DNA of 64,000 bases, from positions 178,746,001 through 178,810,000 of the forward strand of contig OZ024740.1 of NCBI GenBank assembly GCA_964016885.1, given 5' to 3'. This DNA is from Eledone cirrhosa (taxonomy: Eukaryota). This document shows positions 2,419 to 64,000 of the stretch, one piece after another; the first letter of the stretch is position 1; each line of letters opens with the position of its first letter. The position numbers and the translations under genes were made by a program. The notes under the pieces were generated by a model. That model was not told the origin of the DNA and made no database searches. It saw nothing but the letters and a program-made list of their open reading frames with translations.

Positions 2419-3370
2419 CTGTTCACATACCAACACAAGAGCAAGAATGAAGTGTTCATTCTACTGACATGGCTATGAAATTGAGACTTGTTTGCATAAT
2501 TGCAAACATATTCGAAAAACTCAGATTACATTTATTGTATTCAGCCATGTAGAGCGAAAATTTATATATAAATATAATGTATTTATATATTTACTCTCAT
2601 ATATTTACTCTTGGTGCAACAGATATGAACTTCCCGATATAAGGTTTTACTCGCATTGTTTATTTTTTTTATATATGAATATTGATTGTTTCTTGTATCT
2701 CATTCTGTTATTTTGCCCGAGAAAATATGTGTCATCAAACGATGTACACACATGGATATTTTTTCAAATTCCAATTGAGTTCTAGCACGTGAACTGAATT
2801 CCTTTTAGAATTCATTGTCCTGCGCAGGTAATGTTTTTTTTTGCGGTAGTCTTCTTCATCATTTTTGAATCAGTTTGAGAATTTGTTTAGAACTGCTAGA
2901 ATAGCAACCTGGCAGCTACCTCAAGCACTGATGGTGATTATCACTAGATACTGATGTTGATTTGATTATCAATATTAGTATTATTGGGCACCCACTGAAG
3001 AATTATAAGAGCCCACTTGAATAAGTATCTGCTGATCTTATACAAGCTTCTGCATAAATTGGTATAATTTCACCGAAATTGTAGGAATCTTATGATGAAA
3101 CGAGACGTCCGTCTGGGAAGAGATATATTCGATATATGTCATGAAATAATACAGCCAATTTTCCACACAATACAATTAGTTAGCACCCCGAACATTTAAT
3201 TAGGAATATACTCACTTATTTCCTAATGTTTGTTGAGTGAGTTGGGATTTGGCCGGAGTATCGCTATTAGCGTTCTCCGATAATGTATTTATATATATAT
3301 ATATAGAAGTGGTAACACAACAGTTAGTTCTGTTGTCTACCACTACGGATATTACCTTCCAGTGTTCTAA

Positions 3371-3433
<63 letters not shown>

Positions 3434-3494
3434 ATATATGTGTGTGTTAGTATATATTACCCTATAAGCCAACAAACATGACAACACACACTCA

Positions 3495-3694: not shown

Positions 3695-4189
3695 TAATAA
3701 TAATAATAATAATAATATTTTTAAAACACCATGATTTGTATGACAATATTTTGGCCAAAAAAACTAGTGTTTCCTTTATTCAAATACATCAAGATGATAT
3801 AGATATTAAATTTTCATTCTTTGAAATCTTTATACAACAGTGCAAAAATCGAGAGTTTTTGCTATCACGATTTTTAACAATTGTTTTCTATACTACAGTA
3901 GATGAAGTTTTCTGGAGATTTCTTTTCAGCATCTGTTTTCTATTGCACCTTTTTGGAAATGAAAACATTATCAAATCTAGTGGAAACTGGATTTCCACAT
4001 TTTTGTCAAGAAAACATGAACATTTTGAACGTTCGTTTGTAGCATTGAGATTTCGTATAATGCTTTTTTCCGTAAGGATCGAGCCAGTTGTCGTAATATA
4101 GAACGCAGCAGGCACAGCTATACAGCTCTGCACCTATGCTTTGACACACAATTGATCTAACAAATATAGTAACGAAATTCTCCACAAAT

Positions 4190-52900: not shown

Positions 52901-53054
52901 CCCCGGCAGTTCCTGGAACCAAGAAATTACCTCCGAAGTTCTACTTCAGAGTGGGTGTGGTGCAGCTGTACGCAGTGATGGAGTTATTTGGACGAGGGTG
53001 TGTGGGCGTTCGGGTGTTTGTGTGCGTGGTGTAGAAAGTATGTATGTACGTATG

Positions 53055-54230
53055 TTATCTCTTTCTCTTAATTTCGAGTATATTTTTTTTGACCGGCCAC
53101 CTTCCTGGTGGCAAGGTTGTAAAAGAAAAGAAATTGTCATCCCTTGAATCGCAAGAATGTTTTGCAAATTTTGAAGGTGCCAGCTATCGCAGCCATTTGT
53201 AGACTATGAATTAGGGAGCTGCGCTTTTTGTCCGCAAATCCAAGTTCAGTCATACTTTGGTCCAAGCGGGTTGGTATATAACCCGTAGCTCCAATAATGA
53301 TGGGTATGAAGCTAAAGGTGTATCTTGGATAGTGGATTTGTAAACTCCTCATCAACGTAGATGTCCTCCTTCTCCTGTATTTTTCTGACAACGTTTACAT
53401 CAAGTGGGCAGCTGATCTCCACAACAGAATACGTTTTCAATGTGTGGTCCCAAACAACAATATCAGGCCGGTTGTGCTTTAATTTGGTGGCAGTTTTTAT
53501 TTTCAGGTTCCACCAGTATTCCTTAGTGCCATCTGTCTCAATATATTCTTCCTCGTTTGTTGTTAATTTTGTTTTCCGAAGTGCGTTCCAGATGGTTCTA
53601 GCTATCCCATCGTGTCTCATGGGGAGGTAGTAGCGAGATGACATTATTTCGCAGCTGGCAACAATGTGGCTTACATCCTCGATCTTTGTTTTACATAGCC
53701 TACATTTATTGTCAGCTGCTGGCCCTCCTCTTTTGTGCAGCAGATATTTGGTAGGGAGTTCTTGTTCCTGTATTGCATAGAGATATCCCTCAAGGTATGA
53801 TGTCATAAACTTGTCGGAACTCCATGCCAGGCTTTTTGAGTGGTTTATCCTCTCCATGTTCTGTGTTTTACGTCTCAAGTATCCATGCACAACTTTTTCT
53901 ATAAATTGGTCAATTTTTTTTATCTTGTTTGAACATTGAATAGGATCTTCCGATTTCTCTGGGTGAGAGATTTATATCAGGCTTTATTCCATATCTCTCC
54001 TCCAGATCAGTCGCTATTCTAATGATATTTTTTTTTCATGCTCATAAACCTGGGCTAGATGGTTGCCAACCTTTTTCCTGTTAAAGGTGTTGCTTCAGTG
54101 TTACTATCCGGGTCTCATATGTTTTTAATATTGATTTTAAACCCCGGCCACCTTCCTTGCGTGAGAAGTATAGCCTATCCACATCACCATTGATGTTAAA
54201 GTTCCCAGTAACACTGAGAAGTTTGCGAGT
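53055..54230 (-). mobile_element. 5'-truncated R4/Dong-like copy 1
   Basis: Near-identical to 62035-63215. Flanked by (TATG)n. Small frameshifting deletion near 53356. Confidence 0.92.
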
Positions 54231-54237
54231 ATGCATG

Positions 54238-54271
<34 letters not shown>

Positions 54272-54273
54272 TG

Positions 54274-55027
54274 TTTTCTCTTTCTCTTAATTTCGAGTAT
54301 ATTTTTTTGACCGGCCACCTTCCTGGTGGCAAGGTTGTAAAAGAAAAGAAATTGTCATCCCTTGAATCGCAAGAATGTTTTGCAAATTTTGAAGGTGCCA
54401 GCTATCGCAGCCATTTGTAGACTATGAATTAGGGAGCTGCGCTTTTTGTCCGCAAATCCAAGTTCAGTCATACTTTAGTCCAAGCGGATTGGTATATAAC
54501 CCGTAGCTCCAATAATGATGGGTATGAAGCTAAAGGTGTATCTTGGATACTGGATTTGTAAACTCCTCATCAATGGTCCGTAGATGTCCTCCTTCTCCTG
54601 TATTTTTCTGACAACGTTTACATCAAGTGGGCAGCTGATCTCCACAACAAAACACGTTTTCAATGTGTGGTCCCAAACTACAATATCAGGCCGGTTGTGC
54701 TTTAATTTGGTGGCAGTTTTTATTTTCAGGTTCCACCAGTATTCCTTAGTGCCATCTGTCTCAATATATTCTTCCTCGTTTGTTGTTAATTTTGTTTTCC
54801 GAAGTGCGTTCCAGATGGTTCTAGCTATCCCATCGTGCCTCATGGGGAGGTAGTAGCGAGATGACATTATTTCGCAGCTGGCAACAATGTGGCTTACATC
54901 CTCGATCTTTGTTTTACATAGCCTACATTTATTGTCAGCTGCTGACCCTCCTCTTTTGTGCAGCAAATATTTGGTAGGGAGTTCTTGTTCCTGTATTGCA
55001 TAGAGATATCCCTCAAGGTGTGATGTC

Positions 55028-55029
<2 letters not shown>
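54274..55029 (-). mobile_element. 5'-truncated R4/Dong-like copy 2
   Basis: Same 3' end, CCHC and RLE coding region. Flanked by (TATG)n. Confidence 0.92.
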
Positions 55030-55058
<29 letters not shown>

Positions 55059-55112
55059 TGTATGTATGTATGTATGTATGTATGCATGTATGTATGTATG
55101 TATGTATGTATG

Positions 55113-55602
55113 TTTTCTCTTTCTCTTAATTTCGAGTATATTTTTTTGACCGGCCACCTTCCTGGTGGCAAGGTTGTAAAAGAAAAGAAATTGTCATCCC
55201 TTGAATCGCAAGAATGTTTTGCATATTTTGAAGGTGCCAGCTATCGCAGCCATTTGTAGACTATGAATTAGGGAGCTGCGCTTTTTGTCCGCAAATCCAA
55301 GTTCGGTCATACTTTGGTCCAAGCGGGTTGGTATATAACCCGTAGCACCAATAATGATGGGTATGAAGCTAAAGGTGTATCTTGGATACTGGATTTGTAA
55401 GCTCCTCATCAATGGTCCGTAGATGTCCTCCTTCTCCTGTATTTTTCTGACAACGTTTACATCAAGTGGGCAGCTGATCTCCACAACAGAACACGTTTTC
55501 AATGTGTGGTCCCAAACTACAATATCAGGCCGGTTGTGCTTTAATTTGGTGGCAGTTTTTATTTTCAGGTTCCACCAGTATTCCTTAGTGCCATCTGTCT
55601 CA

Positions 55603-55606
<4 letters not shown>
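55113..55606 (-). mobile_element. 5'-truncated R4/Dong-like copy 3
   Basis: Same 3' end and RLE coding region. Flanked by (TATG)n. Confidence 0.92.
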
Positions 55607-55633
<27 letters not shown>

Positions 55634-56262
55634 TGTATGCATGCATACATGTATGTATTGTATATAGATTCAGTCCGGTGCATTGAGTTGCATCTATTTG
55701 AGTCAAAATGTAACTTAACCATTCAAGAAACAGAGATCTATCAAATAGCTACCAGATTGAAATGTGGTGTCTTTAACTGGCTGATGTTCCGTTATTGAAC
55801 GAATCTGCTCTGGATTTAATTTATAATGAAGTATCAAAAGAATAGATCGTCGTCGCTTGAGTGTTTTTGAAAAATACTCGACCTACGACGATATTCTCTT
55901 TTATACGCATGCTCTGTTAAAACCAATAAAAAAAAGACACTACCATATGTCATTGCATATGTTGCCCTTATACATTTTTGCCGTGTATAATAACATAAGA
56001 AAAGATAGTAAAGAATAAAAGAGTTGGTTAACCATTATAACAAGTATGTGTTATTTCATTGAATATTCAGCGTTAAGTGTAAAGACATTTGCTGACAATA
56101 TAGAGCATCAATTATATTACATTGCATTGTCTTCCATTCAAATCTGTAAGTAGATGATGAGAAAAAGATGATTCATTCTTTCCGTTTTCTTAAATTGTTT
56201 ATGTATATGTGGTGAACAAAATTGACCTTCATATTTGTAGACGATATAAGCCTCTCTCTCTA

Positions 56263-56321
<59 letters not shown>

Positions 56322-56326
<5 letters not shown>

Positions 56327-56753
56327 TAAACGGAATAGAAAATGCTGACAAATTGTTCACAGTTGAAAAATGATTTAATTAGGAATAAAAGAGTATTAGT
56401 GATTGTATGGGTTAGTATTCAGTTGTGGTTTTAAGTTTTTAAGTTTTTACCGGTTGCGCATTTCTAAATGCTTTTCAAAAATAATTTTGAGATAGAGTGT
56501 CCGTGCTGTTTGCTCTGATCAGAGCAAACAGCACGGACACTCTATCTCAAAATTATTTTTGAAAAGCATTTAGAAATGCGCAACCGGTAAAAACTTAAAA
56601 ACTTAAAACCACAACTGAATACTAACCCATACAATCACTAATACTCTTTTATTCCTAATTAAATCATTTTTCAACTGTGAACAATTTGTCAGCATTTTCT
56701 ATTCCGTTTACCAATATATAATAACTTGTGTGTTACACCTCTATTCTTTTAAC
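56322..56753. mobile_element. Apparently perfect ~400-bp palindrome of the Neptune-like pLTR plus ~33-bp tail
   Basis: Centre TCTGA|TCAGA at 56518/56519, no spacer. Arm matches 5375-5560. Confidence 0.9.
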
Positions 56754-61140: not shown

Positions 61141-61531
61141 TTACAGTTAACTATACCATATTTATTTCATTAGCTTGCTTATTTTCATCCACGTAGCAGA
61201 GTTTTAGAACTGAATGTTTTACATCTTTCGTGTTGTGTTACTGTGCGGTAATCCTCGATAGTATTGCTCATACTATATTATCCTGGATGTATTTAAAACA
61301 CGTGAAACTCGTCAGCATTGGGGCGTGTGATTTTGTATACTGAGAATCATCACAACACATTGTAGAATTTTGTTAATATATACAATCAGTATATATTTAT
61401 TCATTGACAGAAAAAGACGAATTTGTGACAACAGGCTATCATTTATCCCTTCATTCCTTGTGAAACGAACGAGCAAAGCGGGATGTAACTCTTTCTATGT
61501 ATGTATGTATGTATGTATGTATGTATGTATG

Positions 61532-62016
61532 TTGGACATCCGGCAGGACTAAAAGCAAAACCTGTCAAAGGGCAAAGGAGCTCTTAAGAGTCAATGGCCA
61601 TCCAAAATCACCGGGAGAGATGACCCCTTAGCCTTTGTCAAGGCAGAATTCTAGGAAAACTCTGATATAACACCTGCAACCCTGATGGTATCCAATGATG
61701 TTGACTTGTTCTTCTTTTTGGTAAATATCACCTTGGTTAAGAGAGTGGGACTGGCTTTGTGCAGTGCCTTTGCTCACTATAAAAGCTTCACGGCACAGGC
61801 ATTGCTTTATATCTTGAGATCTCTCTGCACTTGTCGTCACATGGTAACATGGGCCCAGCACTATGTGTCAATAATTGTCACAAGTGTAGTATTTGTACCA
61901 GAGTTTTTAAGTCGCTGGCGGGACTAAAAAGTCACACTCGTTCAGCGCATCGGTAGGGATTCTCATACATGGATATAAAGTAGTGGGCGTACTCGAAAAC
62001 GAGTTGGCAGCCACCA
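61532..62016 (+). mobile_element. RTE-clade LINE 3' end with C-terminal C2H2 finger and (ATGT)n tail
   Basis: 61879-61956 encodes HKCSICTRVFKSLAGLKSHTRSAHR*, then a short 3' UTR and ATGT repeats. Related 3'-end fragment on minus at ~51950-52005. Confidence 0.7.
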
Positions 62017-62034
62017 TGTATGTATGTATGTATG

Positions 62035-64000
62035 TTTTCTCTTTCTCTTAATTTCGAGTATATTTTTTTGACCGGCCACCTTCCTGGTGGCAAGGTTGTA
62101 AAAGAAAAGAAATTGTCATCCCTTGAATCGCAAGAATGTTTTGCATATTTTGAAGGTGCCAGCTATCGCAGCCATTTGTAGACTATGAATTAGGGAGCTG
62201 CGCTTTTTGTCCGCAAATCCAAATTCGGTCATACTTTGGTCCAAGCGGGTTGGTATATAACCCGTAGCACCAATAATGATGGGTATGAAGCTAAAGGTGT
62301 ATCTTGGATACTGGATTTGTAAGCTCCTCATCAATGGTCCGTAGATGTCCTCCTTCTCCTGTATTTTTCTGACAACGTTTACATCAAGTGGGCAGCTGAT
62401 CTCCACAACAGAACACGTTTTCAATGTGTGGTCCCAAACTACAATATCAGGCCGGTTGTGCTTTAATTTGGTGGCAGTTTTTATTTTCAGGTTCCACCAG
62501 TATTCCTTAGTGCCATCTGTCTCAATATATTCTTCCTCGTTTGTTGTTAATTTTGTTTTCCGAAGTGCGTTCCAGATAGTTCTAGCTATCCCATCGTGTC
62601 TCATGGGGAGGTAGTAGCGAGATGACATTCTTTCGCAGCTGGCAACAATGTGACTTACATCCTCGATCTTTGTTTTACATAGCCTACATTTATTGTCAGC
62701 TGCTGGCCCTCCTCTTTTGTGCAGCAGATATTTGGTAGGGAGTTCTTGTTCCTGTATTGCATAGAGATATCCCTCAAGGTGTGATGTCATAAACTTGTCG
62801 GAACTCCATGCCAGGCTTTTTGAGTGGTTTATCCCCTCTATGGTCTGTGTTTTACGCCTCAAGTATCCATGCACAACTTTCTCTGTAAATTGGTCAATTT
62901 TTTTTCTTGTTTGAACATTGAATAAGATCTTCCGATTTCTCTGGGTGAGAGATTTATATCAGGCTTTATTCCATATCTCTCCTACAGATCAGTCGCTATT
63001 CTAATGATATTTCTTTTTTCATGCTCATAAACCTGAGCAAGATGGTCGCCAACCTTTTTCCTCTGTTGAAGGTGTTGCTTCAGTGTTACTATCCGGGTCT
63101 CATATGTTGTTAATATTGATTTTAGACCCCGGCCACCTTCCTTGCGTGAGAAGTATAGCCTATCCACATCACCATTGATGTTAAAGTTCCCAGTAACACT
63201 GAGAAGTTTACGAGTTCTAACATCCATCTCACTTAGTTCTTGCAATGACCAGTTCAGTAGGCCAAATGTTGGCTTTATAATTGGCACAGCATAGGTATTG
63301 TGGGCAATGTATTTGTTATATGCTGACAGTTCTGATGACCATATTTTTTTTACTCTTCTGAGGTATTCAGTTCTGGTTCTCTCCTTATTTATGGGTCCAT
63401 CATATCTGACATTCTCATCCTGTCCAAGATATCTGTAGTTGTCACCTGACTGCAGAGGTTGTATTGTCAGGCCGTTCATATCTAGATTTCTAGAGGAGGG
63501 CACAGCTCTTCCACGTTTTACTGCCAAATATGCACACTTGGACTCACCAAATTTCATTTTGATGTCGGTTGAAAATTGTGTAATGAGGTCCAATTGTTTC
63601 TTGATGTCATTGATATTTGGCCCATACAACTTCAGGTCATCAACAAAGAAAAGATGGGAGATACTTCTGGGCCCACTTCTTTGTCCACCTTGTTTCCTGA
63701 GTAGGTAAGATAGTGGATTCAGTGAGAGAACGAAGAGTAGTACTGACAAGCTATCACCCTGAAAGATGCCCTTCTGGTAATGTATCCTATCAGTCTTAAC
63801 CTGCTCCTTCTCACCTCTAAGGATCAAATTGGTGTACCAGTTCTTGGTCAGGCGTTCAACAGCAGCTATTAATGGTTGTGGGACTTTAGCTAACTGTAAA
63901 GCCTTAATAATCCACCCATGAGGTACACTATCAAATGCTTTTTGATAGTCCAGCCACACGACAGTCATGTTTCTGCGATTCTTTGTTGTTTTTTCCTGAA
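62035..64000 (-). mobile_element. R4/Dong-like non-LTR retrotransposon (RT + CCHC + restriction-like endonuclease), runs off window end
   Basis: WLDYQKAFDSVPH, GIFQGDSLS, HLFFVDDLKLY, YRYLG, RLYFSRKEGGRGL, CRLC-x8-H-x4-C, RHD, RPDIVV..VEISCP. 3' end fuses with (CATA)n. Confidence 0.92.
62116..63968 (-). pseudogene. R4/Dong-like ORF interrupted by TAG at 62982-62984 and a 1-nt frameshift near 62900
   Basis: Track ORFs 62982-63968 and 62116-62874 are one gene. The copy at ~54000 has GAG instead of TAG and an in-frame A-run. Confidence 0.88.

Follow-up and report, generated by a model that had tools for sequence, protein, structure and literature searches.

A cluster of three co-oriented repeats in a 64,000-nucleotide stretch of the Eledone cirrhosa genome (hereafter the window; contig OZ024740.1, positions 178,746,001 to 178,810,000) is very probably a stack of three separate, 5′-truncated insertions of a recently spread 4.2-kb retrotransposon that has the R4/Dong protein layout and targets (TACA)n, likely by RLE nicking of the TATG strand. 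The family to which these copies belong is a recently spread, microsatellite-specific RLE retrotransposon that works like Dong but falls outside Dong as strictly defined, its target being (ACAT)n and not (TAA)n. The features on which the argument rests are located in the window as follows.

53038..53054, minus strand: degenerate (ACAT)n tract downstream of copy 1, the 3′ remnant of the target array
53055..54230, minus strand: copy 1, 1176 bp, 5′-truncated at element position 3041
54231..54273, minus strand: (ACAT)n spacer of 43 bp, both the 5′ flank of copy 1 and the 3′ flank of copy 2
54274..55030, minus strand: copy 2, 757 bp, truncated at element position 3466
55031..55112, minus strand: (ACAT)n spacer of 82 bp between copies 2 and 3
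55113..55606, minus strand: copy 3, 494 bp, truncated at element position 3729
55153..55169, minus strand: 3′ UTR hairpin GCCACC-AGGAA-GGTGGC of copy 3, with a putative role; the same in all four copies in the window
55607..55658, minus strand: (ACAT)n tract upstream of copy 3, the 5′ remnant of the target array
61496..61531, plus strand: (TATG)9 tract at the 5′ side of an oppositely oriented second element
61532..62018, plus strand: 5′-truncated copy of a repeat of ~650 bp found in TATG/AT arrays, facing opposite to the Dong-like family
62019..62034, minus strand: (ACAT)4 tract downstream of copy 4
62035..64000, minus strand: copy 4, the 3′ part of a full-length 4221-bp element that runs on to G000:C1:178812255

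Copies 1 to 3 lie on the minus strand, end at a common 3′ terminus and are joined by (TATG)n, and the three co-oriented, 5′-truncated copies described in the initial annotation are thus borne out at lengths of 1176, 757 and 494 bp. Copy 1 is the oldest, with 34 differences from the young majority sequence, a frameshift, and a haplotype and 3′ end of the older-subfamily type; copy 2 has an intermediate haplotype and 12 differences; and copy 3, which codes for the C-terminus of the RLE followed by the 81-nt 3′ UTR, has none. The earlier division of the four copies into two source lineages is only half right: copies 3 and 4 do group together (1 difference in 494 positions), but copies 1 and 2, while having in common five older-subfamily alleles and one rarer allele, are distinguished by two diagnostic sites and have 12 differences over 757 positions, such that three haplotypes are present rather than two. 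The haplotypes of copies 1, 2 and 3 are all different and each is also found in unlinked copies, and we therefore regard the three as separate insertions, in agreement with the original proposal of independent, co-oriented events.

A single insertion that was duplicated or converted locally could also yield a row of copies, as could the survival of array copies by selection and not by targeting. The six alleles that copies 1 and 2 have in common, one of them rare, and the presence of segmental duplicates elsewhere (L366 and L368) point in this direction, but we find such an origin scarcely credible given that the truncation points differ and each is directly joined to repeat, that the diagnostic haplotypes differ and recur at unlinked positions, and that copy 3 matches the youngest class at every position. 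Selection would furthermore leave unexplained the single orientation of the copies and their avoidance of the far commoner (AT)n and (AC)n arrays, whose coverage in 400 kb of background sequence is 27 times and 5 times that of (ACAT)n, respectively.

The fourth copy does lie in another repeat tract, as had been noted; it begins at 62035, after (TATG)4, and is a full-length element of 4221 bp. It ends 2255 bp past the window, where its upstream flank is (ACAT)13. It carries the young haplotype and is interrupted by one frameshift and one premature stop. The oppositely facing element at 61532–62018, which by resemblance is putatively RTE-like, has no noticed ORF and builds tandems of its own (L209–L238), and an Rfam search with the ~650-bp sequence returned nothing near threshold. 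Its end motif, or a related one, is met within 200 nt by 21 of 94 copies of the Dong-like family. A near-perfect, spacer-free palindrome with arms of ~200 bp also lies in the window at 56320–56717 (centre 56518/56519), beside an (AT)n tract, and is either a fold-back element or an assembly artefact.

The specificity for (TACA)n suggested by the window is supported by copies sampled elsewhere in the genome. We assembled a selected set from two samples, one of the youngest copies and one of older-type copies, both chosen by identity, which together with those in the window comprised 99 insertions. Five that lacked the 3′ end or fell below 93% identity were dropped, as was one whose 5′ flank could not be read, leaving 93, of which 79 are 5′-truncated and 14 are full-length. 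At least three perfect, co-oriented ACAT units are found within 40 nt upstream of the 5′ junction in 87 of the 93 (74 truncated and 13 full-length), an arrangement seen at 0.14% of positions in a background of 400 kb made up of 40 evenly spaced 10-kb stretches. An unselected sample was taken from the first 48 end-motif hits on C1, among which there was one chance match and three that could not be aligned (two old copies and one stub within an ACAT tract). The same 5′ flank is present in 30 of the resulting 44 elements, and in two more once later insertions are allowed for. The 14 exceptions include these two, two that represent one duplicated locus with 85% identity, and otherwise copies below 92% identity or degenerate tracts. 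Array orientation is reversed at one unselected locus (L353) and at one in the selected set (L032), and the 5′ flank of a single selected copy, L100, is not repeat. By a manual count from listings, ACATACAT occurs within 6 nt at 60 of 78 intact 5′ ends on C1, and in reads from three other samples truncated copies continue into GTATG repeats. Among reads from four samples no joint crossed a copy in the stack and no empty allele was seen there. The contrary pattern, in which most copies would have non-repeat 5′ flanks, was looked for in both the selected and the unselected set and was not found; because the co-oriented ACAT tracts at 5′ junctions are so far above background, we conclude that the repeat is the target and not a tail.

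A tail is what would be expected if (CATA)n were encoded by the element, with the 5′ tracts being the tails of neighbours or having been made during insertion. The 3′ ends do enter ACAT in 90 of 94 cases, and the pure 5′ tracts, with a median of 13 units, far exceed typical arrays (24 of 31 background runs have 3 units). Against this, solitary copies with a wide variety of 5′ truncation points carry the tract (74 of 79), and the 3′ tract is frequently just 1–3 units. The most direct evidence comes from a host repeat of which 28 of 30 paralogous copies are element-free while containing pure tracts of 4–21 units, indicating that the arrays predate insertion. In two of the three occupied copies of this host repeat the tracts on the two sides sum to 25 and 27 units, which is more than the maximum of 21 for the first pure tract in the empty copies and is again in keeping with a tail, but in L202 the sum is 13 units and the element sits within the host array with host sequence on both sides. 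We had considered that long 5′ tracts are necessarily made by the element, and dropped this given the long tracts in the empty host-repeat copies. Repeat made by the element is thus largely refuted as the sole cause, and the tail as a whole is very improbable, with some lengthening of tracts through short target duplication or slippage being possible. The pure tracts in the empty copies (L179–L208) end at ~20–21 units, like the tracts beside insertions, and there is possibly a length ceiling for the ACAT microsatellite in this range.

Examination of the junctions provides hints as to how the target is used. The 79 junctions of truncated copies comprise 46 clean ones, 31 with additional or mismatched bases and two that lack an anchor; when the count is confined to the clean junctions, leaving out the other 33, microhomology of at least 2 nt is present at 29 of 46, compared to a null of 18.5% (p = 3e-11). 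For the copies in the stack the microhomology reported previously as 2–4 nt is indeed present, and its size is 3 nt for copy 3 and 2 nt for copy 2 by script, and 2 nt by eye for copy 1, whose junction the script left unresolved. Full-length copies have a single start position preceded by a variable run of A, and the 3′ register is nearly fixed.

The repeats on the two sides of the insertions are unequal in length, with a pure tract median of 13 units upstream and 4 downstream. In the 82 insertions that have no shared tract, 62 are longer upstream and 19 are longer downstream (p = 1.5e-8), and the two sample sets are alike in this regard. At sites with a short 3′ tract the unique sequence beyond the tract is absent from the 5′ junction, as judged by eye with the aid of variant units, and a target duplication, where one is visible, is at most about 2 units. 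A long target-site duplication is therefore ruled out where the 3′ tract is short, since the unique sequence behind the tract is not duplicated. A few two-sided repeats, at L032 and L105, are possibly higher-order arrays of greater age.

R2 binds on the upstream side of its own site, and we infer by analogy that the longer upstream tract in the Eledone family reflects a requirement for an extended stretch of repeat to be bound on that side of the nick; the asymmetry may be increased by a short duplication or by subsequent slippage. The putatively Myb-like N-terminal domain would attach the protein to the array on the upstream side of the cut and so account for the longer pure tract there, and the RLE would then nick the TATG strand. 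Reverse transcription would be primed at this nick, with the RNA copied starting at its 3′ UTR, these steps again being modelled on R2, and the finished or truncated cDNA would be joined to the upstream repeat by 1–5 nt of pairing or with a few added bases. The insertion would thereby split the array such that a long pure tract stays upstream as a further target, and later copies would be expected to stack head-to-tail because this tract remains available.

Stacking of this type is not confined to the window. Among the first 100 hits there are eight pairs of neighbours less than 3 kb apart, seven of them on the same strand, where 0.5 are expected, and at least two copies are present at 12 of 78 other loci, co-oriented in all of them. 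The order within the window, with the oldest copy furthest downstream and the youngest furthest upstream, is what reuse of the long upstream remnant would produce; other stacks show both age orders in a biased sampling of intervals. There are also two same-strand pairs of intact 5′ ends 4.2–4.3 kb apart on C1 (G000:C1:87759279/87763563 and 353639108/353643345), which suggests the presence of head-to-tail full-length dimers.

The intact natural copy L057 is 4222 bp long and consists of a 631-nt 5′ UTR, a single long ORF of 1169 aa and an 81-nt 3′ UTR. A Pfam search with the ORF identifies a reverse transcriptase (RVT_1, E = 3e-24) and a zf-RVT match below threshold, with no APE domain, and among named proteins the nearest is one of Argonauta hians (65% identity over the RT region). 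An alignment of 77 rows places a CCHC finger at residues 985–1002 (C985, C988, H997 and C1002). The RLE motif follows, with P1064 and D1065 each conserved in 69 of 70 homologues, E1080 as the second acidic residue (either D or E in the rows displayed), and K1096 in 67 of 67. An AlphaFold model of the protein (pLDDT 88.5) has R2 proteins as its best Foldseek/PDB matches (E 7e-34, TM about 0.55–0.58), and the RT-finger-RLE fold is indeed like that of R2 from Bombyx, zebra finch and turtle (PDB 8gh6, 9nl3 and 9nl2), although R2 differs in having N-terminal zinc fingers and a 28S rDNA target, and is 16–19% identical in structural alignment. NeSL and CRE likewise have N-terminal zinc fingers; no C2H2-like motif is present in the first 400 aa of the Eledone protein. 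There is instead an N-terminal three-helix domain (pLDDT 85) with two invariant tryptophans, for which most of the top structural rows are Myb/SANT or related proteins (Zeste, TRF1, Cdc5L). The match is weak (best Z 5.7, rmsd 2.5, 64 residues aligned, no Foldseek E < 0.001), and the model thus weakly suggests that the domain is Myb-like. A diverged Myb/SANT-like N-terminal domain has been described for R4/Dong elements (PMC7998251), and the Eledone element has their protein layout, with a putatively Myb-like N-terminus, RT, CCHC finger and RLE.

The hairpin noted previously in the 3′ UTR was recovered in every copy in the window and is identical in 189 of about 215 rows, with some one-sided changes retaining a G-U pair and others breaking pairs; no two-sided compensatory change is seen across these rows. 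The fold of the whole 3′ end has z = −2.2 and that of the 5′ UTR z = −2.0. When the 5′ UTR was searched against Rfam no ribozyme was found, the sole matches being to miRNAs and snoRNAs, driven by repeats and far below threshold.

The genome of E. cirrhosa is large (3.0 Gb) and microsatellite-rich, and the family is abundant within it. A 14-nt motif from the 3′ end has 6139 occurrences genome-wide and its reversed control 248, corresponding to about 6,000 3′ ends, while a 17-nt motif from the 5′ end has 346 occurrences. Of 39 loci recovered in an initial search, 6 have an intact frame. Changes that define lineages are 27 synonymous and 20 non-synonymous whereas private changes are 109 and 294, respectively (p = 4e-5), a substitution pattern that indicates a lineage under purifying selection. 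The intact frames and this enrichment of synonymous changes among subfamilies are both in good agreement with the earlier description of the family as young. Two unlinked copies (L363:4365-4460 and L364) have been broken by related short elements at the same internal site, near element position 3985 at ATTATT, and a segmental duplication with its two parts about 1 Mb apart (L365–L368; C1 34.4 Mb and 35.4 Mb) includes L366 and L368, which are 99% identical over 5 kb.

Related elements are present in the same genome. A second family with about 50% protein identity also has 3′ ends in ACAT, in 13 of 15 distinct rows; it is older and has a longer 3′ UTR (L269–L288, L317–L325), and several main-family copies have its 3′ end on their upstream side, facing the same way. 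There are in addition at least two Dong-like families flanked on both sides by (TAA)n (L239–L268, L309–L316, L327, L328), with 29–33% identity to the TACA family, one of which has many intact frames of 1216 codons. Identity to a Pediculus RT is 31%. The nearest outside relatives are the (TAA)n-flanked elements and the Pediculus RT at about 30%, both closer than R2. Among 80 metagenome loci (TACT)n is at the contig end in three of the seven closest relatives and TAA in none of these, and the other 73 have (TAA)n in 15, (TTA)n in four and TACT in none. The three TACT elements (L369, L371 and L372; 46–58% identity over the RT) are single contigs with one end visible in each.

We constructed a quick tree with 67 of 121 eligible rows and a FastTree with 76 rows. 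In both, the TACA families form one long, fully supported branch from which the TAA families are separate; the TACT elements join this branch in the FastTree. Because the trees are unrooted and lack named R4, Dong, NeSL and HERO sequences, membership of the R4/Dong clade rests mainly on architecture. One reading of these relationships, which we consider about equally likely to be right or wrong, is that a deep, unnamed R4/Dong branch switched from (TAA)n to (TACW)n, with TACA in two E. cirrhosa families and TACT in three metagenome relatives, and that it needs a long pure upstream tract and builds stacks through a self-renewing target.

The relationship between protein and target also bears on whether the protein chooses the site at all. 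Targets might instead be set by RNA-DNA pairing, with transcripts that read through into (CAUA)n priming wherever a TATG array is nicked or has slipped strands, such that the endonuclease would not have to recognize the repeat. The fixed 3′ register is accommodated by this scheme, in that it could come from pairing of a read-through RNA instead of from a fixed nick, and so is the occupation of the same arrays by an unrelated short element in opposite orientation; the arrays around full-length copies could, moreover, be co-transcribed. Pairing alone does not predict the longer upstream tract, and the conserved catalytic residues of the RLE and the purifying selection on the lineage count against it. 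So too does the correspondence between target and protein tree, with TACA and TACT on the branch and TAA off it, although a self-reinforcing tail would also be heritable. We therefore view pairing as improbable and favor nicking by the RLE within (TACA)n.

Known targets include (TAA)n for Dong elements and ACAY microsatellites for Waldo elements (PMC3812793), and the RLE clades are mostly target-specific, with Togen and some HERO families residing in microsatellites (PMC4640811); a survey of elements with R2-type endonucleases (Fell 2025) is described in PMC13580325. The TACA family is similar to Dong of Bombyx mori, DongAg, DongBg, ostracod Dong1/2 and the R4 clade in having a single ORF with RT, CCHC finger and C-terminal RLE, in lacking an N-terminal zinc finger, in its putatively Myb/SANT-like N-terminal helices and in inserting into microsatellites (PMC7998251, PMC3812793), and differs from Dong in occupying (TACA)n rather than (TAA)n. 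With Waldo (WaldoAg1/2 and WaldoFs1, of the R1 clade) it shares a target, as ACAY includes the TACA repeat (PMC3812793), but Waldo is known from insects and is an element with two ORFs and an apurinic-type endonuclease, in contrast to the single ORF and C-terminal RLE described here, and the use of the same repeat by both would be convergence. Dong-R4 elements are expanded in coleoids (PMC8967140) and are the largest recently active LINE class in O. vulgaris, with five recently active families and 1129 near-full insertions averaging about 4.2 kb (PMC13282606), which is also the length of the TACA family. In O. bimaculoides there is a Dong consensus with a full ORF and few new insertions by short-read MELT (PMC9115989). 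The passages of PMC13282606 and PMC9115989 consulted do not state a target site for the octopus elements, and the word "target" does not occur in PMC13282606. Literature searches turned up no R4 element with specificity for (TACA)n or (TACT)n; Repbase or supplements may hold one.

The initial annotation raised the prospect of a site-specific integration tool, for which the family is a weak candidate: the microsatellite that it targets is dispersed, with 43 perfect arrays of at least 12 bp in the 400 kb of background, and the value of the element for this purpose is low because these are multiple sites and not a single safe one. Its interest is rather in how RLE retrotransposons change targets, an open question that has mostly been studied in R2. 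A single genome with intact-frame (TACA)n and (TAA)n families, and with (TACT)n relatives one base away, offers direct domain swaps. If the switch to (TACW)n is real, the TAA/TACA/TACT series would serve to locate the residues that set the repeat, in the Myb-like or the nuclease domain, and polymorphic insertions would be largely missed by short-read callers. If octopus Dong elements are also in microsatellites, the few new insertions reported in O. bimaculoides (PMC9115989) may be an artefact of mapping.
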